Virus record (IMG/VR): IMGVR_UViG_3300037692_000441
Coordinates: 1-40,716 of that record
Strand: one strand, 5' to 3'
DNA: 40,716 bases
From: a virus
Lineage: Duplodnaviria; Caudoviricetes
This document shows, piece after piece, positions 2,037 through 37,931 of the stretch. The position numbers were made by a program, and so were the translations under genes. Under the pieces are notes generated by a model, which ran no database searches, had not been told where the DNA came from, and saw nothing but the letters and a program-made list of their open reading frames with translations. How positions within the stretch are numbered: position 1 is the first letter of the stretch; each line of letters starts with the position of its first letter.

Positions 2037-2218
2037 AAATATTTCGACAATTCTTTGATCCCCTCCTCATACTCCCCTTCCGGCAATCCCTTCAGGAGCT
2101 GCTTCCCAATCTCGTATTCACGCCACGACCCGGACGCCCGCCGCAGCCCTGCTATGGCGAAATAAATGGCGAGGGGGACCTCGGGCAACGGGAGGGCCGT
2201 GACCGCCATCAGATCCAC
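2027..2218 (-). CDS. Hypothetical protein
   Basis: Tightly overlapped ORF within the operon. Confidence 0.55.
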   Translation of the reverse strand: MDLMAVTALPLPEVPLAIYFAIAGLRRASGSWREYEIGKQLLKGLPEGEYEEGIKELSKYLCV

Positions 2219-2523
2219 CCGTTAAGCGCCAGGCGCATCCGGTCCGCCTCGAGGGACCGGTACCGCAGATCCTCCGTCGTCTTCCCCCATTCCGTTCCGC
2301 GCGTCGTCCCGCAGGTGAACGCCTTGCGGACGATCACGCCGTACCGGAGGAGCTCCTGGTCGATCTCCCGGGCGCCGGGGCAGTTCCAGAGGACGAGCGC
2401 GGGAACGTCGCAAAGGCCGAATACCGTGACGGTGCCGGGGATCCGCTTCTGAACGTATTGCGTTCCGACGGGAATTCTCCGCTCGGGATCTGGGGCCGTG
2501 GATCCGCAGCAGGCGCATTTCAT
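2209..2523 (-). CDS. Cys-containing hypothetical protein (possible Zn-binding; MKCACCG...)
   Basis: ATG overlaps the upstream TGA (ATGA) with GGAGG SD; CxxC plus distal Cys residues. Confidence 0.6.
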   Translation of the reverse strand: MKCACCGSTAPDPERRIPVGTQYVQKRIPGTVTVFGLCDVPALVLWNCPGAREIDQELLRYGVIVRKAFTCGTTRGTEWGKTTEDLRYRSLEADRMRLALNGWI

Positions 2524-3062
2524 GCCAGCGCCCTCCTTTGTCCTGAGATCCGGTTGAAGTGGATTTGGCAATACGGGCCTTTCGCGCCGTGCGACAGCAC
2601 CGCCAAGCAGTCCGGGTCGGCGCAGATCCGCGGGCCGTCGCCGTGCGTCGGCTTGCGCACCGCCGCTTCCGCCCTCGCGCGGGCAATACCCTGCTTGCAG
2701 GAGGCGCACGGAATCTCCCGGCGGCTGTCGAGGAGCGTGTTCGCCACGGGCCGCATCGCCGCCTTGCGGACGGCGAGGCACACGCCGTCGTCCACGCACG
2801 GGTTGATCTCGATGTGGCGGTGTGGGGGCGATATCCTGTTGTTCACAACAGGTTCATCCGCTGTCCGTTGCGAAGACGCTACCGGCGCGGGCTGGCGAGG
2901 ATCGCGTCCGAGTGCTGCGATGACCCGGGGGAGGAAGATACGACTCGGAGCGCCCCGCTTGTTCTTCCACCTCCATACGACTACCTGTGAAAATCCCGCC
3001 TTGCGCAGGATCGCCGCGTCGGCCTCGTCGATGAAGATGGGCGGGGAGGCGCGGCGGGTCAC
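2520..3062 (-). CDS. HTH-like N-terminal domain plus Cys-rich C-terminal domain protein
   Basis: GFSQVVVWRWKNKRGAPS resembles an XRE recognition helix; several Cys pairs follow. Confidence 0.55.
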   Translation of the reverse strand: MTRRASPPIFIDEADAAILRKAGFSQVVVWRWKNKRGAPSRIFLPRVIAALGRDPRQPAPVASSQRTADEPVVNNRISPPHRHIEINPCVDDGVCLAVRKAAMRPVANTLLDSRREIPCASCKQGIARARAEAAVRKPTHGDGPRICADPDCLAVLSHGAKGPYCQIHFNRISGQRRALA

Positions 3063-3427
3063 CGCTTCGCCGCCCGATGTTTTGTTGGTTTGTTCTTTCC
3101 GTTGTTCCGGAAATTTGCTGCCGGGGAATATTTCTTTATAAGTTCTTGTTCGTGCGAAAGAGCTGATTTGTTATCGTCATGCCAACTGACTATTTCGGCT
3201 TCAAAGTAGCCATGCTCTGCGACGATCCTGAACCACTCCGGATTTCTTGCGATCGAACCTCCAATAGTAAAGGGACGGCCAGCAGTTCCCTTTCCTACAT
3301 AAAACACCTCATTGTTAACCGAGTGGGTATATACACAAACATTCGCGTACCTTAATGGCGCGCTATGCCTGTATTGAGAGAATATTCCAGGCGCACGCTT
3401 TATTTCTTGGATATCGATGCGTGTCAC
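3059..3427 (-). CDS. GIY-YIG family endonuclease (free-standing, low GC)
   Basis: VYTH...FYVGKG..GR...E..LI...N motif pattern; GTG start overlaps the upstream stop; visibly AT-richer than its flanks. Confidence 0.75.
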   Translation of the reverse strand: MTRIDIQEIKRAPGIFSQYRHSAPLRYANVCVYTHSVNNEVFYVGKGTAGRPFTIGGSIARNPEWFRIVAEHGYFEAEIVSWHDDNKSALSHEQELIKKYSPAANFRNNGKNKPTKHRAAKR

Positions 3428-3789
3428 TTCCTTTTCAGCTCCACGAGGGTCTTCGCGATCTCCGTGACCTGCTTCTCGAGCCGCTGGATCGTCAGTTCGC
3501 GCTGCGCCTGCTTCGGCACCAGGTCGCGGACGGCGAAATACTTCGCGATCATCTTCCCGCCGGTGGCGTGACGGATGAGGTCCAGCTCGTTCGCGAAGAG
3601 GTTCGCTGACGTCCCCCCAGAGAGCTTCATGGAGAGCAGCTGGATCGACATTCCGCACGCCTCGGCGATCGCTTTCGGTGGCTTGCCGCAGTTGTAGACG
3701 TCCCAGGCTGCGGCCTCTGTCGGGGTCTCGAAGTCTCGCGGATCCGGCTCGGATTTTTCTTCGAAATTTAGAGTGAGTTGTCCAGACAT
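3424..3789 (-). CDS. CII-like phage regulatory protein
   Basis: Position after cro; KAIAEACGMSIQLLSMKL HTH-like segment. Confidence 0.6.
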   Translation of the reverse strand: MSGQLTLNFEEKSEPDPRDFETPTEAAAWDVYNCGKPPKAIAEACGMSIQLLSMKLSGGTSANLFANELDLIRHATGGKMIAKYFAVRDLVPKQAQRELTIQRLEKQVTEIAKTLVELKRK

Positions 3790-6588: not shown

Positions 6589-6734
6589 CCACCATGCAAA
6601 CCACGTTCCGACGCCTGTCCGACGCGGACCTCCGCGCGTTCCGCCCGTCGTACTTCATCGTCCGGTGGCCAGGCTGGAAGATCTTCGCGGTCATCATCCT
6701 GATTGGCGTGTGCGTCAAGTGGATCACGAAATGA
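6585..6734 (+). CDS. Small membrane protein (49 aa)
   Basis: ATGA overlaps at both ends; C-terminal hydrophobic helix KIFAVIILIGVCVKW. Confidence 0.55.
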   Translation: MTTMQTTFRRLSDADLRAFRPSYFIVRWPGWKIFAVIILIGVCVKWITK

Positions 6735-6844
6735 TTACCTTCCAGCAGGAGGCCATCCGCGTGGCCCGCACGATAGGCGACGTCATCACCGTCGCGTGGG
6801 TGGTGTTCGTGTGCGCGTGGGCGCTGGCGGGGTACTTCGGATGA
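6731..6844 (+). CDS. Small membrane peptide (37 aa)
   Basis: ATGA overlaps; VITVAWVVFVCAWALAGYFG. Confidence 0.5.
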   Translation: MITFQQEAIRVARTIGDVITVAWVVFVCAWALAGYFG

Positions 6845-7035
6845 ACGCCCGCACCGCTGCTGCGATCGACCGCCACATCATGAATCCCCCCGAGCTCGAG
6901 GAGGAGGAGCGGGAGCCGGGCGAGGACTGCGCGCGCCCTGGGCCGCGCGGTTGCGGGTCCTGTCCGGGGTGCTCCGGCTACGGCGACATGAAGTTTGAGC
7001 AGAAGCGAGACAAACAAATAGAGAGGGAGGGGTAA
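6841..7035 (+). CDS. Small Cys-rich hypothetical protein
   Basis: Translationally coupled; C..CxxCxxC. Confidence 0.55.
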   Translation: MNARTAAAIDRHIMNPPELEEEEREPGEDCARPGPRGCGSCPGCSGYGDMKFEQKRDKQIEREG

Positions 7036-7817
7036 TGCGACGACTCATGGTGCTGGATTGGAAATCGGGAAAGAACGTCGAAGACGCGAAGTTCACCGGC
7101 TACACGGAGCACCCGATGCAGGTGGCCTCGTATGCCAAGGCGTACAACCTCGAGGCCGCCGCCGCGGGGGAAGAGCTGATCACCGCCAGCGGCCTGGTCT
7201 ACCTCGACAAGGAGACGGGGCGCCCACGGTTCATCGACACGACGGATGGGATGGAGACGAACTTCGCCGCGTTCTGTGCGATCCGGGAGTATTACCGCTT
7301 GAAGGTGGAGCCGACGGTCTCCGGAGCGCGATTCTACAAGTACGGCGGCGAAAAGTTCCCATCGGTCACAACTGTCTTGGGCCAGCTCGATAAACCGGCG
7401 CTGATCCAGTGGGCGGCTAACTGCGCGGTCGAGTGCATCGAGGGCGTAATCCAGGAGATCCGGGACCCGAAGACCTCCCAGGCGCGCATCGAGCAGCTCC
7501 TCCTCGAGGCGAAGAAGAACTTCCGGGCCGTGTCGCGCAAGGCCATGGACATCGGCACCGTGATCCACAACGCCATCCAGACGCACCTGCACGGCGGCGA
7601 CCCCTCCAACCTCCTCGACGGCAACGAGGCCGCGCAGACCGGCTTCCTCGCGTTCCTCGAGTGGGCGGGGAAGGTGAAGCTCGAGGTCCTCGCGCTCGAG
7701 AAGCCGCTCTTCCACCCGGGGCTCCGTTATGCGGGCACCCCCGATTTTATCGGTCACGTCGACTTGAACAGCACCGCGGCCGTGGCCGCGGAGAAGGAGG
7801 AACTCGATGTCTTTTGA
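7035..7817 (+). CDS. PD-(D/E)XK exonuclease (phage RecB-like/MGME1-like), circularly permuted
   Basis: All motifs present but out of order: VLDWKSG and QVASY at the N-terminus; PSVTTVL, GTVIH, E and YAGTPD after them. Confidence 0.82.
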   Translation: MRRLMVLDWKSGKNVEDAKFTGYTEHPMQVASYAKAYNLEAAAAGEELITASGLVYLDKETGRPRFIDTTDGMETNFAAFCAIREYYRLKVEPTVSGARFYKYGGEKFPSVTTVLGQLDKPALIQWAANCAVECIEGVIQEIRDPKTSQARIEQLLLEAKKNFRAVSRKAMDIGTVIHNAIQTHLHGGDPSNLLDGNEAAQTGFLAFLEWAGKVKLEVLALEKPLFHPGLRYAGTPDFIGHVDLNSTAAVAAEKEELDVF

Positions 7818-8331
7818 GCTGGCTTTCCGGCCGGCGAGTAGAGAATTCTTCTTTGCCCGAGCACGGGCAAGGGATCCGCGGACGTTCGACCGGCTCATGG
7901 CCAGGGCGGACACTTCGGACCCGGAAGCCTGCTGGCCGTGCCGGGGGCTGGCGCCAAGCGCATACGGAACAATCAGTATTCAGGGGAAAAAGCACAAGGC
8001 CCACCGCGTGATGTTCGCGCTAGCTTTCGGCGACCCTTCCGCTCCGGAGGTTCGTCACGTCTGCCACAAGCCGCCGTGCTTCAATCCTCTCCACCTGAGA
8101 GGCGGAACGCACCGAGACAACATGCTCGATCGAGTTGTCGCGAACCGGGGCGGGTATCTCAAAGGTGAGTCAAACGGCCGCGCGAAGTTGACCGCCGGAC
8201 AGGTGGCGTTCATCCGGACCAGTTCCACGCCGGGGGCGGATCTCGCCCGCCAGTTCAATGTCACGAAAACCCTGATCAGTTACATCCGGAAAGGGAAACT
8301 CTGGAAACACCTCAAAGGAGGAGGCGAATAG
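7807..8331 (+). CDS. HNH homing-type endonuclease with C-terminal HTH
   Basis: CWP...YG...AHRV...RHVCHKPPCFNPLHL..GT..DN; GESNGRAKLT followed by an HTH. Confidence 0.88.
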   Translation: MSFELAFRPASREFFFARARARDPRTFDRLMARADTSDPEACWPCRGLAPSAYGTISIQGKKHKAHRVMFALAFGDPSAPEVRHVCHKPPCFNPLHLRGGTHRDNMLDRVVANRGGYLKGESNGRAKLTAGQVAFIRTSSTPGADLARQFNVTKTLISYIRKGKLWKHLKGGGE

Positions 8332-9423
8332 ATGGCAAATGTTACGTTTCGAAAAGCAGAACGTCGTAAGGCGAAGCTCCGGCTCGGGCTGGCGGGCCCG
8401 GCCGGCAGCGGGAAGACTTACAGTGCGCTCCTGATCGCCAAGGGGCTCGGCGGACGGGTCGCGATGATCGACACCGAGCACCATTCGGGAGAGCTCTACG
8501 CCGACCTGTACGACTACGACACCACGGTGATCGAGCCGCCGTTCCGGCCGGACAAGTACACGGAGGCGATCAAGGCGGCAGAGGAGGCCGGGTACGACGT
8601 CATCATCATCGACTCGCTCTCCCACGCCTGGGCCGGCGAGGGCGGACTCCTCGACATGCAGGGGAAGATCGCGGACTCGGGGAAGGGGAACAGCTACACC
8701 GCCTGGCGGTCGGTCACCCCGAAACACAACGCGCTGGTGGAATCGATGCTCCAGAGCAAGGCGCACGTGATCGGCTGTTTCCGGTCGAAACAGGATTACG
8801 TCCAGCAGAAGGACGAGAAGACCGGGAAGACCGAGATCAAGAAGGTCGGGATGGCGCCCATCTTCCGGGATGGGTGCGAGTATGAATTTTCCTGCTTCCT
8901 GGACCTGTCCCTCGACCACAATGCAACCTCTTCGAAGGACAGGACGCGGTTGTTCGACGGGACGATTTTCCAGCCTTCCGTAAAAACAGGCGAGGCGCTC
9001 ATCGAATGGCTGAACTCCGGCACCGATATCCCGGCGCCCTCCCCGCAAGCGGATCCTCAGCCCGCCGCGGCTCCTGCTCCACCCCAGGCGGCGCCGACCG
9101 CGGCCGCTCCCTCGGAGAGCGCTCCCCCGAAACCCGTCAACGGACTCCCCGGAGAGGATCCGAGCAAGGCCACGGCGCCGAAGGGCGGGGAAGAGCCGTT
9201 CCCGAACGAGATGGTCACCGACGACCAGCGCAAGAAGCTGATGGCGATGTTCAACGAGCTCGGGATCAAGAACCGGGAAACCCGGCTCTCCTGGGTGCGC
9301 ACGTGCCTCCATGCACCTTCGGTCAGCACCGTCATGGACCTCACGAAGGACCAGGCGTCGAAGGTAATCGACGCCCTCGAGCACGCCCTGGAAACCCAGC
9401 GCGCGCAGAAGAAGAGCGCGTAA
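8332..9423 (+). CDS. Sak4-like (AAA_24) recombinase/ATPase
   Basis: GPAGSGKT Walker A, IDTE, IIIDSLSHAW; located between exonuclease and ssb. Confidence 0.85.
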   Translation: MANVTFRKAERRKAKLRLGLAGPAGSGKTYSALLIAKGLGGRVAMIDTEHHSGELYADLYDYDTTVIEPPFRPDKYTEAIKAAEEAGYDVIIIDSLSHAWAGEGGLLDMQGKIADSGKGNSYTAWRSVTPKHNALVESMLQSKAHVIGCFRSKQDYVQQKDEKTGKTEIKKVGMAPIFRDGCEYEFSCFLDLSLDHNATSSKDRTRLFDGTIFQPSVKTGEALIEWLNSGTDIPAPSPQADPQPAAAPAPPQAAPTAAAPSESAPPKPVNGLPGEDPSKATAPKGGEEPFPNEMVTDDQRKKLMAMFNELGIKNRETRLSWVRTCLHAPSVSTVMDLTKDQASKVIDALEHALETQRAQKKSA

Positions 9424-9426
9424 GCC

Positions 9427-9828
9427 ATGGGCACCTACAACAGGGTAATCCTGATGGGAAACCTGACCCGGGATCCGGAGGTCAGGTTCCTGGACTCAGG
9501 GATGGCCGTGGCGTCGTTCGGCCTGGCCGTCAACCGGAAGTGGAAGAAGGACGGGGAAACGAAGGAGGAGGTCTCCTTCTTTGACTGCGAGGCGTGGGGA
9601 AAGACCGCCGAGATCTGCGGGGATTACCTCGCTAAGGGCCGTCCGGTGCTGATCGATGGTCGATTGAAACAGGAGCGGTGGGAGGACGACAACCAAAACA
9701 AGCGGCAGAAGATCAAGGTCGTGATCAACGAGGTCCAGTTCCTGGGGAAAAAGGACGAGACCCAGGAGACATCTGCAACAGAAGCCCCCGCGGCAGGTGC
9801 AACCAGCGCCGAGGAAGACGCTTTCTAA
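9427..9828 (+). CDS. ssb: Single-stranded DNA-binding protein
   Basis: NRVILMGNLTRDPE...GRL...W OB-fold; acidic tail EEDAF. Confidence 0.95.
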   Translation: MGTYNRVILMGNLTRDPEVRFLDSGMAVASFGLAVNRKWKKDGETKEEVSFFDCEAWGKTAEICGDYLAKGRPVLIDGRLKQERWEDDNQNKRQKIKVVINEVQFLGKKDETQETSATEAPAAGATSAEEDAF

Positions 9829-10805: not shown

Positions 10806-10978
10806 AGGAAACCAAGGTGCTTATGGTCATATGCGATCCTGTGTCGGAACCGACACTGCGAGAATTCCTGCTGCTCGGAGGCTACCGGTTCAGCACGGCG
10901 TACGTCCAAGAAGCCGAACCACCGAAAGTGGAGCTGCCGAGTGACGATTACGGCCCCGAGCTTGGAGGCGATACCTGA
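10802..10978 (+). CDS. Hypothetical protein (58 aa, MKETKVLMV...)
   Basis: Fills the gap with ATGA and TGATG overlaps. Confidence 0.5.
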   Translation: MKETKVLMVICDPVSEPTLREFLLLGGYRFSTAYVQEAEPPKVELPSDDYGPELGGDT

Positions 10979-12915
10979 TGGCCTCCCCCGTCGATCGCCC
11001 ACCCGTCGAATTCTCGGAGTTTCACCTTTTTGCGGGTATTGGGGGCGGGGCCTTGGGCGCCGCCTCCGCCCGCGCGACGTGGCTCGGCTGCTGCGGTTCC
11101 ATCCGTACGCTCGGCGGGATCGACTCCGACCCGGCCGCCTGCGCGGACTTCGAGCGGTTCACCGGGATTCCTGCGACGTGCCTGGACCTGTTCGACCGGG
11201 AGCAGTACGTCGCGTTCCACGGGAAACAACCTCCTCCGGAGTGGCGGGAAGCGACCCCCGCGGACGTCCTGCGCGCCGCCGGCGGGGTCTGCCCGGACAT
11301 TATCTTCTCATCGCCCCCCTGCAAGGGCTTCTCGGGGCTACTCCCGAGCGCCTCCGCGGGGTCGGAGAAGTACCAGGCGCTCAACCGCCTGACCACCCGG
11401 GCCGTTCGCCTCACCCTCGGGGCGTTCAAGAAGGACCCTCCCGCGGTGTTCCTCATCGAGAACGTGCCCCGGATCCGAACCCGCGGGGCGGAGCTGCTCG
11501 AGGAGATCAAGCGGCTCCTCCGTGGCCACGGCTACCGGGTCACCGACTCGGACCACGACTGCGGGGAGATCGGAGGGCTGGGCCAGCGGCGGAAGCGGTA
11601 CCTGATGATCGCCCGGAACCCGAAGAAGCTGGCGCCGTTCATCTATCAGCCGCCGAAGCGCCCCCTGAAGACGATCGGCGACGTGATCGGGCCGCTGGCG
11701 CTTCCGGACGATCCCTCGCTCGGGCCGATGCACCGGCTCCCGCGGCTTAAGTGGCTGACCTGGCTGCGGCTGGCGCTGATCCCCGCCGGCGGCGACTGGC
11801 GGGACCTTCAGAAGATCACGCCGGAAGAGTACCGGATCATTCGCACGGAATGGGGTACCACGAACAACGCCCTGACGGTGCAGCCGTGGGACAAGCCGGC
11901 GGCGACCGTCACGAGCAGCACGCGCCTTTCCGGAAGCAGCCCGGCGGCCGTGGCGGATCCACGCCTCAAGGAAAAGACCGGCTACAACGGTTCCCCCGGG
12001 CTGTACGGGGTCAACGCATGGGATGAACCGGCCAAGGCCGTCACGGGCGGGATGCGAGTCCCTTGCTCGAACACCCCCGCCGCGATCGCGGATCCGCGTC
12101 TCCCCGACTCGAAGGGCGTCTACCCGAACCGATTCAGGGTCGGCCGCTTCAACGAGCCCGCGGCCTGCATCACCGGAGACACGGATGTCCAGTGCGGGGC
12201 GCAGTCGATCGGAGACCCTCGGGTGCCGGAGAAAAGCGGTCGCCATTTCTCCCATCTGCGGGTCAACGGATGGGTCGAGCCCGGGAAGACGGTCACAGGG
12301 GCCACGCACGTCGCCAATGGTGCGCCCTCGATCGGCGATCCTCGCCTACATCACGTCCCCCGCCCGGGCGTCTACCGGATCCTCCGGATGGACGAGACGG
12401 CGCCGACGATCACCGGCGGCGCGGGTGTCGGTACCAGCAACGGCGCGCAGGCCATCGCCGACCATCGGCTCGGGTGCAAGCCGCGCAGCGGGAGCTACGG
12501 GGTGCAGGACTGGAACGAGCCCTCATCCGCGATCGTTGGCGCCGGAGACATCCATTCGGCAGCTGCTGCCGTATCCGACCCCCGGATCCCCGGCAACGAC
12601 GAGCGGCCAGACCCGCCCCCGGTGATCGTAGCCCTCGACGGGACATGGCACCGGCCGCTGACCACGCTGGAGCTGCTCGCTCTGCAGTCGTTCCCGGTCC
12701 GGTTCGCCGACGGGACACCCGTGGTGCTGGCCGGGAAGAGCGATTCGAAATGGAGAGAGCGCGTCGGAAACGCCGTCCCTCCGGATGCCTCCCGGGGGAT
12801 TCACGAGCAGATCCTCCTCGCCATGGTGCAGCACGTAGCAGGCGAGACGTACACCCTTGGGACGACGCCGGTGTGGGTGCGGAGGATCGAGAAGGAAAAG
12901 GAGGTTCGGACATGA
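10978..12915 (+). CDS. C5 DNA cytosine methyltransferase with six tandem ~42-aa repeats in the variable region
   Basis: Motif I LFAGIGG, IV SPPCKGFS, VI ENV, VIII QRRKR, IX RPLTTLELLALQSFP, X VGNAVPP. Confidence 0.9.
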   Translation: MASPVDRPPVEFSEFHLFAGIGGGALGAASARATWLGCCGSIRTLGGIDSDPAACADFERFTGIPATCLDLFDREQYVAFHGKQPPPEWREATPADVLRAAGGVCPDIIFSSPPCKGFSGLLPSASAGSEKYQALNRLTTRAVRLTLGAFKKDPPAVFLIENVPRIRTRGAELLEEIKRLLRGHGYRVTDSDHDCGEIGGLGQRRKRYLMIARNPKKLAPFIYQPPKRPLKTIGDVIGPLALPDDPSLGPMHRLPRLKWLTWLRLALIPAGGDWRDLQKITPEEYRIIRTEWGTTNNALTVQPWDKPAATVTSSTRLSGSSPAAVADPRLKEKTGYNGSPGLYGVNAWDEPAKAVTGGMRVPCSNTPAAIADPRLPDSKGVYPNRFRVGRFNEPAACITGDTDVQCGAQSIGDPRVPEKSGRHFSHLRVNGWVEPGKTVTGATHVANGAPSIGDPRLHHVPRPGVYRILRMDETAPTITGGAGVGTSNGAQAIADHRLGCKPRSGSYGVQDWNEPSSAIVGAGDIHSAAAAVSDPRIPGNDERPDPPPVIVALDGTWHRPLTTLELLALQSFPVRFADGTPVVLAGKSDSKWRERVGNAVPPDASRGIHEQILLAMVQHVAGETYTLGTTPVWVRRIEKEKEVRT

Positions 12916-17440: not shown

Positions 17441-19207
17441 TCAGTTGGTCAGTTGGGAGACTCTTGAATTGTAAGTATTATCCCCGCTGTTGGCCAACAG
17501 AACCTGGAGCGTCACGTTATCCGCCACGCTGTACGTTCTGGCAGGAGGCGATCCCACGGCATTATAGGTGTGCAATACCGACGCCGCCCCATAGGCAAAA
17601 GCCACCACGTCAATGAACCTCCCCGTCTTGGCGTCGTTCCATGCGCTTACTAAAACGAGGCCACCCCCGACCTCTCCGGCCCCCTGACTGTTTTCCAGAA
17701 GGGAGGCAATCGTGTTCTGGGTCGTATTATCCCCGATCAGGCCATTCGTTACTGACGCTCCCTTTAACTGATGCGTTGAATAATAGGAACTCGTCCCTTT
17801 TGATCCAACTTTTCTAAGATTCATCCCGACAGACGAATACATATCGCGCTGATAAGTGTCGTTCCCGCGATAATTAACAGTACTGTCGTCTCCACCACTA
17901 TTTCCAACCCATTCAATGTCATAATTGCTTTGCGGGGTGGGATTTGACACGGTGACAAACGTCGGATGCCCTGCCGTTATAGCGGAGAAAGTATTCCTGT
18001 ACACTTTTAATCTCCACACATTTTCATATTTAATATGACCGCCTCCATGATCAGCCCCAACGAAAGTAGTATCAGACACAAGGAAGTTCGCGAGTGGATC
18101 TCCCGGCAACCCCAACAGGGCAATATCGAAATCCGTGGCATTGTTGTCTGTCATATTGTTTTCAAAATGACAACCGACTACCCTGATTAAACTTAACGCT
18201 ATTGGAGATTGACTACCCGCAGAAACATACAATCCAGAACCTTGGTTGGACTCAAATACGGTATTGTTTACAAATTCTATTCCTGTACCCTGCCGAATAT
18301 ACGCACCGTGCTTTATTGCGACCCTGAACCTGCAATTCGAGAACGTAGTGGACGTAACAAATGTGTTGCTTATTTCCCCCATGTACAAATTATAGTAATT
18401 GGCATCAAAAGTGCAGTTATTAAACTTACTACTGACCATTGCCTCGAGCCTTAATCCATAAGAATCCGTATTGTCGAAATGTGATACGCGAACATAATCC
18501 ACGTTTAAAGAGGAGTACTCTCCGTTAGATCCAATGTACAGTCCACCCACGGGCGATCCCGCTGTAGTGGTAAGCCGGAAATTCCTTAATATCATCCCCT
18601 CGCCCTGAGAGGTGTTCACTCTTGGATTGACAGCTAAGGCAACGTTATCTCCCTGGTAGTCAAGGATGGTTCGCCAGCCTTCACCTTCGAAAATCCCCAA
18701 ACTCGAATAACGCAAACCCGCGCCGTTATATGCATAAGTTCCTATGGAAAAATGGATTGTTCCGTCGATCTCTAAAGCAGCATCAAAGGCCACCTGGATC
18801 GCCGTGGCGTTCGTAGCCGCCGCGCCGCCTCGTAAAGCACCCCACCATTCGGGATACATTTTCCCGACTTGCCCTCCGGCGAAGGAAACCGTGCCAGCCC
18901 CACTGAATGCCTGATACAGGCCAGCATTAAACGGTCCCTTTATCGTCAGCACCTTCCCCGACGACAGCACGAATCCTCCGCCGTTTTTCATGTCCAGGTG
19001 GACGTTCGCCGGAACCGTCGTGTTGTCGGTGACGCCGAGCGAAGTCGTGACGACCAGCGTCCTGCTCGAGGCCCCGATCTGCGTGAGGGCTTGCGAGAGA
19101 GTCTGGAAAGAGGCGGAACTGAGCGGCGCGAACCAGATTTGGTAGACCAGCAGGGCACAGATAGCGGTAAACGCCCCGAAAATCGAGAACAGTTTTTTGT
19201 TTTTCAT
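17441..19207 (-). CDS. Right-handed beta-helix tailspike/depolymerase-like protein with N-terminal signal/anchor sequence
   Basis: YPEWWGA...AIQVAFDA...GTY...GEG pectate-lyase-type start and parallel beta-helix repeats. MKNKK + hydrophobic stretch + SSA. Most of the gene has lower GC. GAGGTG SD before ATG 19207. Confidence 0.8.
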   Translation of the reverse strand: MKNKKLFSIFGAFTAICALLVYQIWFAPLSSASFQTLSQALTQIGASSRTLVVTTSLGVTDNTTVPANVHLDMKNGGGFVLSSGKVLTIKGPFNAGLYQAFSGAGTVSFAGGQVGKMYPEWWGALRGGAAATNATAIQVAFDAALEIDGTIHFSIGTYAYNGAGLRYSSLGIFEGEGWRTILDYQGDNVALAVNPRVNTSQGEGMILRNFRLTTTAGSPVGGLYIGSNGEYSSLNVDYVRVSHFDNTDSYGLRLEAMVSSKFNNCTFDANYYNLYMGEISNTFVTSTTFSNCRFRVAIKHGAYIRQGTGIEFVNNTVFESNQGSGLYVSAGSQSPIALSLIRVVGCHFENNMTDNNATDFDIALLGLPGDPLANFLVSDTTFVGADHGGGHIKYENVWRLKVYRNTFSAITAGHPTFVTVSNPTPQSNYDIEWVGNSGGDDSTVNYRGNDTYQRDMYSSVGMNLRKVGSKGTSSYYSTHQLKGASVTNGLIGDNTTQNTIASLLENSQGAGEVGGGLVLVSAWNDAKTGRFIDVVAFAYGAASVLHTYNAVGSPPARTYSVADNVTLQVLLANSGDNTYNSRVSQLTN

Positions 19208-19215
19208 ATCACACC

Positions 19216-19815
19216 TCACAGAGTGATCTGGCCGAACGCTGCCCACTGGCCAGGCGTTCCGGCATCAACACAGGCCCACCCGACCGGCCCCCCGATCTCG
19301 GGGGCGGTATTGAATCTTATGAATCCAAGCGCCCATGTCCCATCACTCGGAGGTCCTGTCCCCGTGTCGAACGGCATGGCGGCGCCGAGCGCCAAGGACG
19401 CGACCGCCTCGATTCCGGAGCCGTCCGCCTTGATCCGGAGGTAGTAGCCGGCAGGCGACAATGGGATCGTCAACCCAGGGAACTCCTGAAGAATCAGCGT
19501 GAGCTTGTCGGCCATTGCCTCGAGGGTTTCTTCATAGAACTGCTGCCCCGCGTTGAGATCGACCGCCTGGGTGCGCGCCGTTTCTCTTCGAAGCATGATC
19601 GTATTCCCCGCCGTGCGGCCCGAAACGAACGTCACGTTTCCACCGCCATCGCTCCCCGCGCCCGACACCGTGTAGTCGACGCCCAAGGCCAGCAACGTCC
19701 CATCGTCGTAAACCCGGAGATCCGCCGCAGCCAGGATCCGGAATGGGTACGGGAACACCGTCTGCAGTGCGGAGGCGATATAGACCTTGTAGAAAACGAG
19801 GGTCGAGACGGTCAT
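19216..19815 (-). CDS. Short tail-fibre adaptor (T7 gp17-like N-terminal anchor + GTPGxW C-terminal module)
   Basis: FPYPFRI....DLRVY...DYTV.G.G...GG.VTF...RRET...DKLTLILQE anchor; C-terminal PPSDGTW...GWACVDAGTPGQW. Confidence 0.8.
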   Translation of the reverse strand: MTVSTLVFYKVYIASALQTVFPYPFRILAAADLRVYDDGTLLALGVDYTVSGAGSDGGGNVTFVSGRTAGNTIMLRRETARTQAVDLNAGQQFYEETLEAMADKLTLILQEFPGLTIPLSPAGYYLRIKADGSGIEAVASLALGAAMPFDTGTGPPSDGTWALGFIRFNTAPEIGGPVGWACVDAGTPGQWAAFGQITL

Positions 19816-35873: not shown

Positions 35874-36800
35874 CTACGTCTCCGCGTCCTGCTGGAAGTC
35901 CGCGGAACGTGAGTGATTGAAGATGTCAAAATCGGTTTCAGCCCGGGTCTGCTGCTTGGCGGGTTTCCCCGTCGGCACGCCCGCGATCACCCGGGAGACG
36001 ACGTACTCGAGTGCGTTCATCAGGTGGCTGAACTCGTTCTTCGCCGGGTCGTCGTCGTACAGGCCCGACTGAGGCCGCTTCGTGCGCTGGTACCCGCCCT
36101 CGAACGCCTCGATCAGAAACCGCTCCCGGGGGTCGATCTGCAGGAACTGCCGCCCGTCGTCGGAGAGCCGCCCCAGCACCGCCTCCATCGCCTTGAAGCG
36201 GCCCGCCCACGTCACCTCGCCGAGCTGCACGTTCAGCCCGAACCCCTTCAAGTTCTCGTCCGGGTGATCCGGGGAGTTCTCGAGGATCCCCTTGCACGTC
36301 TTCTCGTCCGAATCTTTCCGGGCGTTCCCCGCGGGATCGATGTACTCCACCCATGAGAAGCCCGGGAAGAGCGGCGCGCAGTGCTCGAGCACCCGCGTAC
36401 CGAACCGCTTGATGCCCATGAACGAGTTGTTGGGCACGTAGAGACTCGGGAACACGTTCAGGTGCATCGGCGTCAGTTGGCAGATAGCAGCCGCCGGCGT
36501 CCCGCCGAAGTCCCACCCGCGCAACATCGGGATATCTTTCACGGGCGAAAGCGGCCCCGGCGCAACGTGCAGCTGCCGGCGATAAGTCAGGTAGACCGGC
36601 ATTCCGGAGCGGATCGAGAAGTCGATCTCCTGCTCCTTGCGCCAGTCGGAGGAGAGCTCACCACCCGGCACGCCCCGGAGCTTGGCCTCCTTCCACGCCC
36701 GCCCTTCCGCCGTCTCGGGATCCCGGCCCCGGAAGGCGCTGTAGTGCAGCTCGATCGACCGGATGCCGGAGGCGGTGTCCCACTTCTTGATGCCCCTCAC
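35874..36800 (-). CDS. terL: Terminase large subunit, C-terminal part (lid + RNase H-like nuclease)
   Basis: GTG overlaps the TGA of the upstream part; WRKEQEIDF...G.PVY, RGWDFG, IDPAG and SHLMNALEY motifs. Confidence 0.82.
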   Translation of the reverse strand: MRGIKKWDTASGIRSIELHYSAFRGRDPETAEGRAWKEAKLRGVPGGELSSDWRKEQEIDFSIRSGMPVYLTYRRQLHVAPGPLSPVKDIPMLRGWDFGGTPAAAICQLTPMHLNVFPSLYVPNNSFMGIKRFGTRVLEHCAPLFPGFSWVEYIDPAGNARKDSDEKTCKGILENSPDHPDENLKGFGLNVQLGEVTWAGRFKAMEAVLGRLSDDGRQFLQIDPRERFLIEAFEGGYQRTKRPQSGLYDDDPAKNEFSHLMNALEYVVSRVIAGVPTGKPAKQQTRAETDFDIFNHSRSADFQQDAET

Positions 36801-37522
36801 CCTACCGCCCCCATGGTGATCGGCGACTGGAACTCGCCCATGATGCCGAAGTCCGACGGCTCCGCGGAGGACACCGCCACGATCTTCCGCGCGCACTGCT
36901 TCGCGGCCCGGTAGGCGTTCTTGAACTCGGGCTGGAACGCCGCCTCATCGCCGAAGTAGAGGCTGACCGTGTTCGACCGGACGATGTCCCCGCCCTGGGG
37001 AACGCCCATAATCTTGCTGCCGTTGTGCCGGTAGACGATCTCCCCGAAAGCGTTGAGCCTGGGGACCTGCATCCAGAACGGCAGCCGGCCCTCGATGAAG
37101 TCGATGCGCCCGACGCCCGCCTCCTTGGCGTAGACCAGGTTAGCGGCGTCGTCCTCCTTCTTGCTCTGGATCATGCACAGCTGCGAGTCCCGGAACCGCG
37201 CCCACCAGCACAGGTACGCGCACATGAGCCACGTAACCGAAAGCTGCCGGCTCTTTGCGATGAACGTCACCGGGTGCTCGTGGATCTCCTCGAGGATCTC
37301 CACCAGTGCGGGCTCGTGCGGGAAGGGCTTGTAGGCCACCTTCTCGTCGTACTCATCCTTCGTCCACACCCACTGGAGGGGGTGCCAGATCCAGTAATAC
37401 GGGCTTTGCGCGGCCAGCGCTGCCTCGCAGGCTTGCAGCGTCGGGCTCTGATCGAGCTTGCGGGCGTATTCCGCCCACTCGCGCTCCGTGCGGCGCTCGA
37501 ACAGGGATTCGAGATCAACCAC
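36797..37522 (-). CDS. terL: Terminase large subunit, N-terminal ATPase part
   Basis: IAKSRQLSVTW Walker A-type motif, LYFGDEAAF Walker B, VSSA coupling motif; GTG start at 37522. Confidence 0.85.
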   Translation of the reverse strand: MVDLESLFERRTEREWAEYARKLDQSPTLQACEAALAAQSPYYWIWHPLQWVWTKDEYDEKVAYKPFPHEPALVEILEEIHEHPVTFIAKSRQLSVTWLMCAYLCWWARFRDSQLCMIQSKKEDDAANLVYAKEAGVGRIDFIEGRLPFWMQVPRLNAFGEIVYRHNGSKIMGVPQGGDIVRSNTVSLYFGDEAAFQPEFKNAYRAAKQCARKIVAVSSAEPSDFGIMGEFQSPITMGAVG

Positions 37523-37931
37523 CGGCTTGCTTGCCCTGCCTGGCGACGACCTCCGCGCGCATGATCTCGCGGATCTGCGCGGAGGTCTTACCGGAGAGGT
37601 CGACGTGGGCGATCGGGCCACCGCCGGGCCCGGAGTGCTCGACCCGGTTGTAGCCGTACCCGCGGTCCTTCGCGTTCGCGTTGAGCCATCCCATGGTCGC
37701 CGTAGAGTTCCCATTCCGGGACTGGGTTACCAGGAAGCCCTCGAAGAGGTCCTTGCACGACTCCTTGGCGTGCTGCACCGCCTGGGCGAACTCCGGGTCC
37801 TCTTTGATCCAGAGGTAGTACGTGTCCCTGCGGATCTTCACGGCCTTGCAGGCTGCCGTGACGTTATTGGCCTTCTTGACAAGCACGTCGAGGAAGACCT
37901 CTTTGTTGCGTGCCCTGTTGTGGTCGGTCAT
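37515..37931 (-). CDS. terS: Terminase small subunit
   Basis: NVTAACKAVKIRRDTYY.W...DPEF HTH; KDRGY..RVEHSGPGGGPI tail; directly upstream of TerL. Confidence 0.8.
   Translation of the reverse strand: MTDHNRARNKEVFLDVLVKKANNVTAACKAVKIRRDTYYLWIKEDPEFAQAVQHAKESCKDLFEGFLVTQSRNGNSTATMGWLNANAKDRGYGYNRVEHSGPGGGPIAHVDLSGKTSAQIREIMRAEVVARQGKQAGG

Follow-up and report, generated by a model that had tools for sequence, protein, structure and literature searches.

The window, by which we mean the whole stretch of 40,716 bases analysed here, is a complete-looking phage record with integrase, repressor, head, and tail genes. An earlier note on this DNA had singled out one gene as a naturally circularly permuted PD-(D/E)XK recombination exonuclease. 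The features of this locus, with amino acid (aa) positions counted along the exonuclease, are as follows.

7021..7032, + strand: Shine-Dalgarno-like purine-rich stretch, seen in the sequence, with similar stretches in relatives
7035..7817, + strand: exonuclease gene, a stop-free ORF of 260 aa, circularly permuted PD-(D/E)XK nuclease with the chain order called type A here
7041..7304, + strand: moved block, aa 3-90, the canonical C-terminal third with motif III (D8-x-K10), motif IV (Q29/Y33), and the C-terminal helix (profile 146-218)
7305..7325, + strand: new linker, about aa 91-97, bridging the former C-terminal helix and the former N-terminus (unmatched segment separating the two profile hits)
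7326..7763, + strand: canonical N-terminal two thirds, aa 98-243, with the RFY leader, PSVTT, the helical arch, motif Ia (H178), motif I (E222), and motif II (D237) with its strand (profile 3-144; PHROG 298)
7764..7814, + strand: new C-terminal tail, aa 244-260, ending EELDVF, predicted to be disordered (pLDDT) and overlapping the Shine-Dalgarno sequence and ATG of the next gene (DNA alignment)
7807..8331, + strand: free-standing HNH endonuclease gene at the start of the Sak4-like gene (PF13392, E 2.2e-7)
8332..9423, + strand: Sak4-like (AAA_24) ATPase/annealase whose chain order is canonical and whose C-terminal domain is ERF/RecT-like (PF13479, E 1.4e-19; PHROG 1366, 4171, 124)
9427..9828, + strand: single-strand DNA-binding protein, SSB (PF00436, E 2.9e-34)

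The ATG of the exonuclease gene overlaps the stop codon of the upstream ORF (TAATG), and the N-terminal MR[RK]L is conserved among relatives. The motifs lie where the earlier note had placed them, with DWK at aa 8-10 (nt 7056-7064), QVASY at aa 29, RFY from nt 7329, PSVTT at aa 109, GTVIH at aa 174, LEKPL at aa 221, and YAGTPD at aa 232 (nt 7728-7745); the Shine-Dalgarno sequence claimed there likewise has its counterpart in the purine-rich stretch ahead of the ATG.

Using a canonical profile built from 56 canonical-order relatives, we found that aa 3-90 match profile positions 146-218 (46.1 bits, E 2.6e-13) and that aa 98-243 match positions 3-144 (157.2 bits, E 2.7e-47). Both halves thus match one family profile in non-colinear order, and the C-terminal third has moved to the front, as had been claimed. 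When the sequence was doubled head-to-tail in silico, it aligned as a single domain over profile positions 3-218 with 203.9 bits, which shows that the blocks abut and that almost nothing was lost or repeated. The block junction falls in the turn between the motif II strand (D237) and the motif III strand (D8, K10), confirming that the new termini lie in the hairpin between the two catalytic aspartates. Accordingly, the profile match gives the motif order III-IV-Ia-I-II, versus Ia-I-II-III-IV in the canonical proteins; the same blocks are rotated within one chain with no large loss or repeat, which is the hallmark of a circular permutant. A profile search of the whole genome returned those two matches only, so the window carries no second, canonical copy. 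PHROG 298 matches aa 94-244 (E 4.3e-25) and is the top PHROG also for the other type A, type B, and canonical members. The Pfam family PF12705 (PDDEXK_1) is present in the precomputed matches of several type A relatives; in the window exonuclease it covers aa 3-88 only and scores 20.9 bits, below the gathering cut-off of 22 bits. Permuted genes fall below profile cut-offs in this way and end up annotated as hypothetical. We conclude, with near certainty, that a phage nuclease of the PHROG-298, MGME1/RecB type has here undergone a real, natural circular permutation that opened the chain between motifs II and III.

Our relative set comprised 324 proteins including the query, and because these were picked by likeness to permuted queries and include near-duplicates, their ratios do not represent natural frequencies: 34 show the type A order of the window, 33 a second order called type B here, 256 the canonical order, and one is partial. 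Other permuted homologs therefore exist, while the canonical order of these 256 proteins, as of MGME1, shows that type A is not the norm of the family. At the DNA level, type A is encoded by a single ORF in ten loci (L116-L124 and L196, 37-93% identity) among L001-L202, many of which are repeated between scans. A partial type A gene in locus L125 ends at the same point. Profile scans of viral_contigs found no permuted loci, and a search of the ESM Atlas returned only PF12705 clusters. Hints at the host are limited to a 90%-cluster relative filed under a Deltaproteobacteria MAG and to L196, filed under bacterium UBA2219.

At the seven motif columns, H, E, D, D, K, Q, and Y are retained in all 34 type A sequences, so the complete catalytic set claimed for the permutant is indeed present. 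Compared with six relatives, the exonuclease has an overall dN/dS of 0.12-0.30; the moved block alone gives 0.10-0.28 and the remaining block 0.07-0.29 (the most distant pair is saturated). Variation is highest in the linker, aa 91-99 (dN 0.28-0.60). Motif conservation and purifying selection support the earlier proposal of a functional permutant and suggest that the permuted protein is very probably an active nuclease. The window is a metagenomic contig, and the order could in principle be an assembly artefact or belong to a dead pseudogene. A Logan contig, which may itself be the source of the window, is identical to it over 6600-8600, and a second contig from another study, at about 89% identity, covers 7068-7611 with 62 letters different. 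Two contigs, one from an independent study, thus span the junction at 7300-7330 at contig level. The order is shared by 34 distinct sequences from several sources and stands in the DNA of ten other loci, and the exonuclease is under purifying selection, which makes an artefact or pseudogene exceedingly improbable here and has already refuted it for the clade.

The RecB/MGME1 motifs I (Glu), II (Asp), and III (D-x-K) are represented by E222, D237, and D8/K10 in the exonuclease and are present in 34/34 type A sequences. Two further elements, the motif Ia histidine and the motif IV signature QhXXY, belong to the MGME1-like definition in the available text of PMC6237815 and correspond to H178 and Q29-V-A-S-Y33. 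According to the same text, MGME1 uses H180, E223, D238, D251, K253, Q271, and Y275 in two-metal catalysis and holds single-stranded DNA beneath a helical arch (PMC6237815). These catalytic residues correspond to the motifs of the exonuclease, and MGME1 is the only family of solved structure matched by the canonical profile (E 1e-12).

Other nuclease families were considered as well. The Cas4/AddB nucleases bind an Fe-S cluster through four conserved cysteines. No cysteine is invariant or nearly invariant in the type A and canonical alignments, which sets the exonuclease apart from the Cas4/AddB type, and it has no NCBIfam Cas4 match. The lambda Exo/YqaJ enzymes are toroidal exonucleases that work as a ring oligomer; none of their Pfam families is among the matches of the exonuclease at E<=1.

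The AlphaFold2 model of the window exonuclease (P0001) has a mean pLDDT of 85.6, with 92-96 in the 10-residue blocks around D8, E222, and D237 and less than 50 in the tail, residues 247-260, which is predicted to be disordered. Residues 1-96 superpose on MGME1 244-336 (Z 6.0, rmsd 2.5, 90 residues aligned), a score tied with unrelated helical rows. The structure aligners used are sequential and cannot cross the permutation. Foldseek gave no match for the model at E<=0.001, with MGME1 on top. The chain is predicted by the model to fold as one domain in which D8/K10 and D237/H178/E222 meet as in MGME1. In canonical members the commonest spacing between the two aspartates is 12 residues, and type A proteins have 5-8 residues ahead of D(III) and 6 or more following D(II), which means that both strands are retained. 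Along either strand, 6-7 residues separate the cut from the aspartate, a distance of roughly 20 Angstrom if standard strand geometry is assumed, and this speaks against any direct influence of the cut on the metal site.

The exonuclease-Sak4-SSB context described earlier stands as far as the Sak4-like and SSB genes are concerned, but the HNH gene between exonuclease and Sak4 had been overlooked. Relatives with 58-93% identity lack this HNH gene, which must therefore have been acquired later than the permutation. Its first codons resemble the Sak4 start of the relatives (MSF), and the window Sak4 has a new Shine-Dalgarno sequence and start codon. The HNH gene looks like a recent insertion of a free-standing homing endonuclease that took over the start codons of Sak4. 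The last 120 aa of the Sak4-like ATPase (8332-9423) match the RecT/ERF-type PHROGs 4171 and 155. Next to the permuted exonuclease, a Sak4-like annealase is found in L116-L121 and L196 and an ERF gene upstream in L122, while L123, L124, and L125 have no recognised annealase beside it. Sak4-like neighbours with a Walker A motif have the canonical order in all cases (9/9), and a Sak4 scan of viral_contigs found nothing. Another HNH gene lies in the ERF-type module of locus L122 (6740-7123), where it overlaps the stop codon of the type A exonuclease.

These HNH genes raise the possibility that cleavage of the DNA encoding the catalytic motifs by a homing endonuclease selected or caused a break in the hairpin, i.e., a fission, after which the halves were re-fused in reversed order. 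An HNH gene lies directly downstream, beside the motif II codons, in two of nine permuted loci (the window and L122). At first sight this link appeared strong (2/9 versus 0/114 canonical loci, p 0.005); however, that profile had been seeded with those two HNH genes. An unbiased PHROG scan, in which an ORF was available at 118 of the 123 loci, found an HNH-like gene directly downstream also in 3-5 of the 114 canonical loci, leaving a post hoc Fisher p of 0.04-0.08. In addition, the window HNH gene postdates the permutation, and neither the loci L001-L202 and L205-L219 nor five short proteins show a split form of the gene. We therefore regard a role of HNH endonucleases in the rearrangement as quite unlikely.

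Several further observations concern other parts of the window. The C5 DNA methyltransferase at 10978-12915 is unusually long (645 aa) and has repeated ADPR-like segments in the middle of the protein. At 17441-19815 (- strand), a 199-aa ORF matches only the N-terminus of tail-fibre PHROGs and overlaps a 601-aa ORF without a PHROG match, possibly a tail fibre in two frames. Similarly, at 35874-37714 (- strand), the match to the terminase large subunit is limited to a 305-aa ORF that is followed by an overlapping 340-aa ORF without a PHROG match, possibly a two-piece terminase. The ORF at 3059-3658 (- strand) has no PHROG match at 1e-5 and contains a YVYTH...FYVGKG stretch, which we take to resemble GIY-YIG endonucleases. 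Finally, a small gene of 104 aa at 2209-2523 (- strand) has a 13-aa insertion compared with its homologue in L116. Around 2365-2451 (- strand), a segment weakly resembles the PSVT region; this match is at chance level (E 0.33 over 675 window ORFs), and the segment is an insertion in an unrelated small gene.

The available text of PMC5928155 reports that the Sak4 protein of phage HK620 anneals single-stranded DNA, aided by its SSB. Since the neighbours of the permuted exonuclease are a Sak4-like ATPase and an SSB, or an ERF gene in L122, end resection for annealing is its likely role: as a metal-dependent exonuclease, it would resect DNA ends, presumably 5'-to-3', for single-strand annealing by the Sak4-like protein and SSB. 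The new C-terminus offers a possible twist on this role. Ending in EELDVF, it might have been turned into an acidic tip like that of SSB, one that attracts the Sak4-like annealase and creates a new coupling. The tails of P0001-P0009 end in acidic residues and Phe like the SSB tail, which HK620 Sak4 needs (PMC5928155, available text), and the window tail is predicted to be disordered. However, the E-E-x-D-V-F pattern can be imposed by the Shine-Dalgarno sequence and start codon of the next gene, with which the tail overlaps, and the tail dN/dS of 0.14-0.72 comes from few codons. Only nine of the 34 type A sequences carry it, which is why it cannot explain the origin of the permutation. Such a co-option thus seems very unlikely.

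Type B proteins have a different order, in which an R-x-Y leader is followed by motifs II, III, and IV, the C-terminal helix, and then PSVTT to motif I. The 33 sequences, among them P0059, P0127, P0226, P0243-P0257, and P0260, are known from protein records only. In 29 of 32 cases the type B leader scores better against the canonical N-terminal strand than against the motif I strand, although selection by R-x-Y favours this outcome. A Tyr leader ahead of PSVT is found in 31/34 type A versus 2/33 type B sequences. In a type B model (pLDDT 88.7), residues 1-117 superpose on MGME1 123-335 (Z 9.9, rmsd 4.1-5.5, 110-113 residues). Because the leader resembles the canonical N-terminal strand, type B looks like a non-circular a-c-b swap, not a rotation, in which the original leader was kept and two core blocks exchanged places.

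To place the two orders, we calculated a maximum-likelihood tree of 75 rows, comprising 18 type A and 13 type B sequences thinned at 80% identity and 44 canonical sequences that are nearest neighbours or hand-picked; two partials and three duplicates were dropped, P0243-P0324 are absent, and the model for tree and AU tests was LG+G4 with no mixture. The main type A clade (99/89) also holds the canonical P0101 and P0102, the type B clade has a support of 88/97, and the type A protein P0171 sits deep among the canonical rows. The AU test rejected types A and B as one clade (p=0.023) and P0171 joined to the main type A clade (p 7e-5), with P0101 and P0102 having been put into the tested groups after the tree was seen. 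The two orders thus appear, from these sequence comparisons, to have arisen separately, giving at least two origins in the family. P0171 would represent a third, which is tentative because this protein is a singleton on a contig of 1,160 bases. A reversion of P0101 and P0102 to the canonical order from inside the type A clade was considered but found no firm backing, as a pure type A clade that leaves out these two proteins is unrejected (AU p 0.175). The two blocks of P0101 group differently in small, poorly resolved trees, so P0101 may be a mosaic. Canonical, circularly permuted, and block-swapped versions are about 40-55% identical to one another.

Permutations are explained by two standard models, duplication-deletion and fission-fusion, in the available part of PMC3320104. 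For type A, the origin would be a tandem duplication after which the outer parts were lost, a route that we consider somewhat better than even. The retained leader of type B would fit an internal duplication with two deletions. None of the 324 proteins represents a duplicated intermediate (all are at most 1.75 times the usual length); the single protein that matched at least 15 profile columns twice has an insertion. There are no repeat remnants flanking the exonuclease gene. The new chain would have survived because the old ends are near enough for a linker of about seven residues and the cut falls at the hairpin turn, 6-7 residues from each aspartate. The closeness of the old ends and the position of the cut away from the aspartates suggest that the rearrangement was close to neutral, and we lean toward a permutation that was tolerated rather than adaptive, while noting that repeated origins fit selection as well as neutrality.

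Alternatively, the rearrangement may have been an adaptive escape: the feature by which a host defence protein or an inhibitor recognises phage recombination proteins would be removed or shifted, and the enzyme would remain active. The origins in one family, at least two and possibly three, are compatible with such pressure, but it is well established that a permuted protein retains nearly the same surface. Chain order is tied to no host defence in the present data, and we know of no inhibitor or sensor of the PHROG-298/MGME1-like family. On the other hand, mutations that allow escape from AbiK map to Sak4 and Sak genes (PMC5928155, available text). Weighing these points, we consider adaptive escape unlikely, and the earlier idea that the opened hairpin changes DNA loading or evades an inhibitor found no support. 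A broader reading, which we rate only slightly higher and still doubtful, is that phage recombination modules are rewiring hot spots: this nuclease family owes its three chain orders to at least two or three events, a non-circular swap among them, and the short tandem duplications that become fixed as permutants might be made by the partner annealases themselves, under pressure from host defences that monitor recombination proteins. Overall, the best explanation, and a probable one, is a natural permutant that likely works as an end-resecting exonuclease and arose by duplication-deletion in a near-neutral manner.

The enzyme kind itself is known; new are the permuted order and the second, non-circular rearrangement in the same family. 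The literature covered by our searches holds no description of a permuted exonuclease of the MGME1-like/PHROG-298 family, nor of a natural permutation that cuts between the catalytic strands of a PD-(D/E)XK core. The three orders form a natural series for testing how permutations arise and how they affect activity, polarity, and partner binding, and they identify two places in the chain of an MGME1-like nuclease where new termini are tolerated.

Among known systems, the canonical PHROG 298 phage exonucleases (PF12705-like) are closest, sharing the family, the motifs, and the kind of recombination-module setting. In Microbacterium and Curtobacterium phages, they carry the annotation 'exonuclease' or 'Cas4 family exonuclease'. 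Over the profile columns, the canonical proteins nearest to the window exonuclease are P0101 (49% identity) and P0102 (43%), and none of 12 isolated-phage matches covers 80% of the query. The window chain differs from them in being rotated, with its termini inside the catalytic hairpin and the old termini joined. Human MGME1 (PDB 5ZYU, 8XA9) shares motifs I, Ia, II, III, and IV, and the moved block superposes on its residues 244-336, whereas it has the canonical order, is mitochondrial, and reaches about 18% identity in the aligned block; the free C-terminal tail of MGME1 lacks an equivalent here because that end is tethered in the permutant. The Hef/XPF endonuclease (PDB 1J22) is also a natural circular permutation within the PD-(D/E)XK fold, in which the available text of PMC3424549 describes the first core helix as moved to the C-terminus; in contrast, the window exonuclease is opened between two catalytic strands, and its family contains both orders. 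The permuted DNA methyltransferases resemble our case in the repeated natural permutation of one enzyme family on mobile DNA, but the available part of PMC3320104 documents duplicated intermediates for them, whereas none were found for the window nuclease family.
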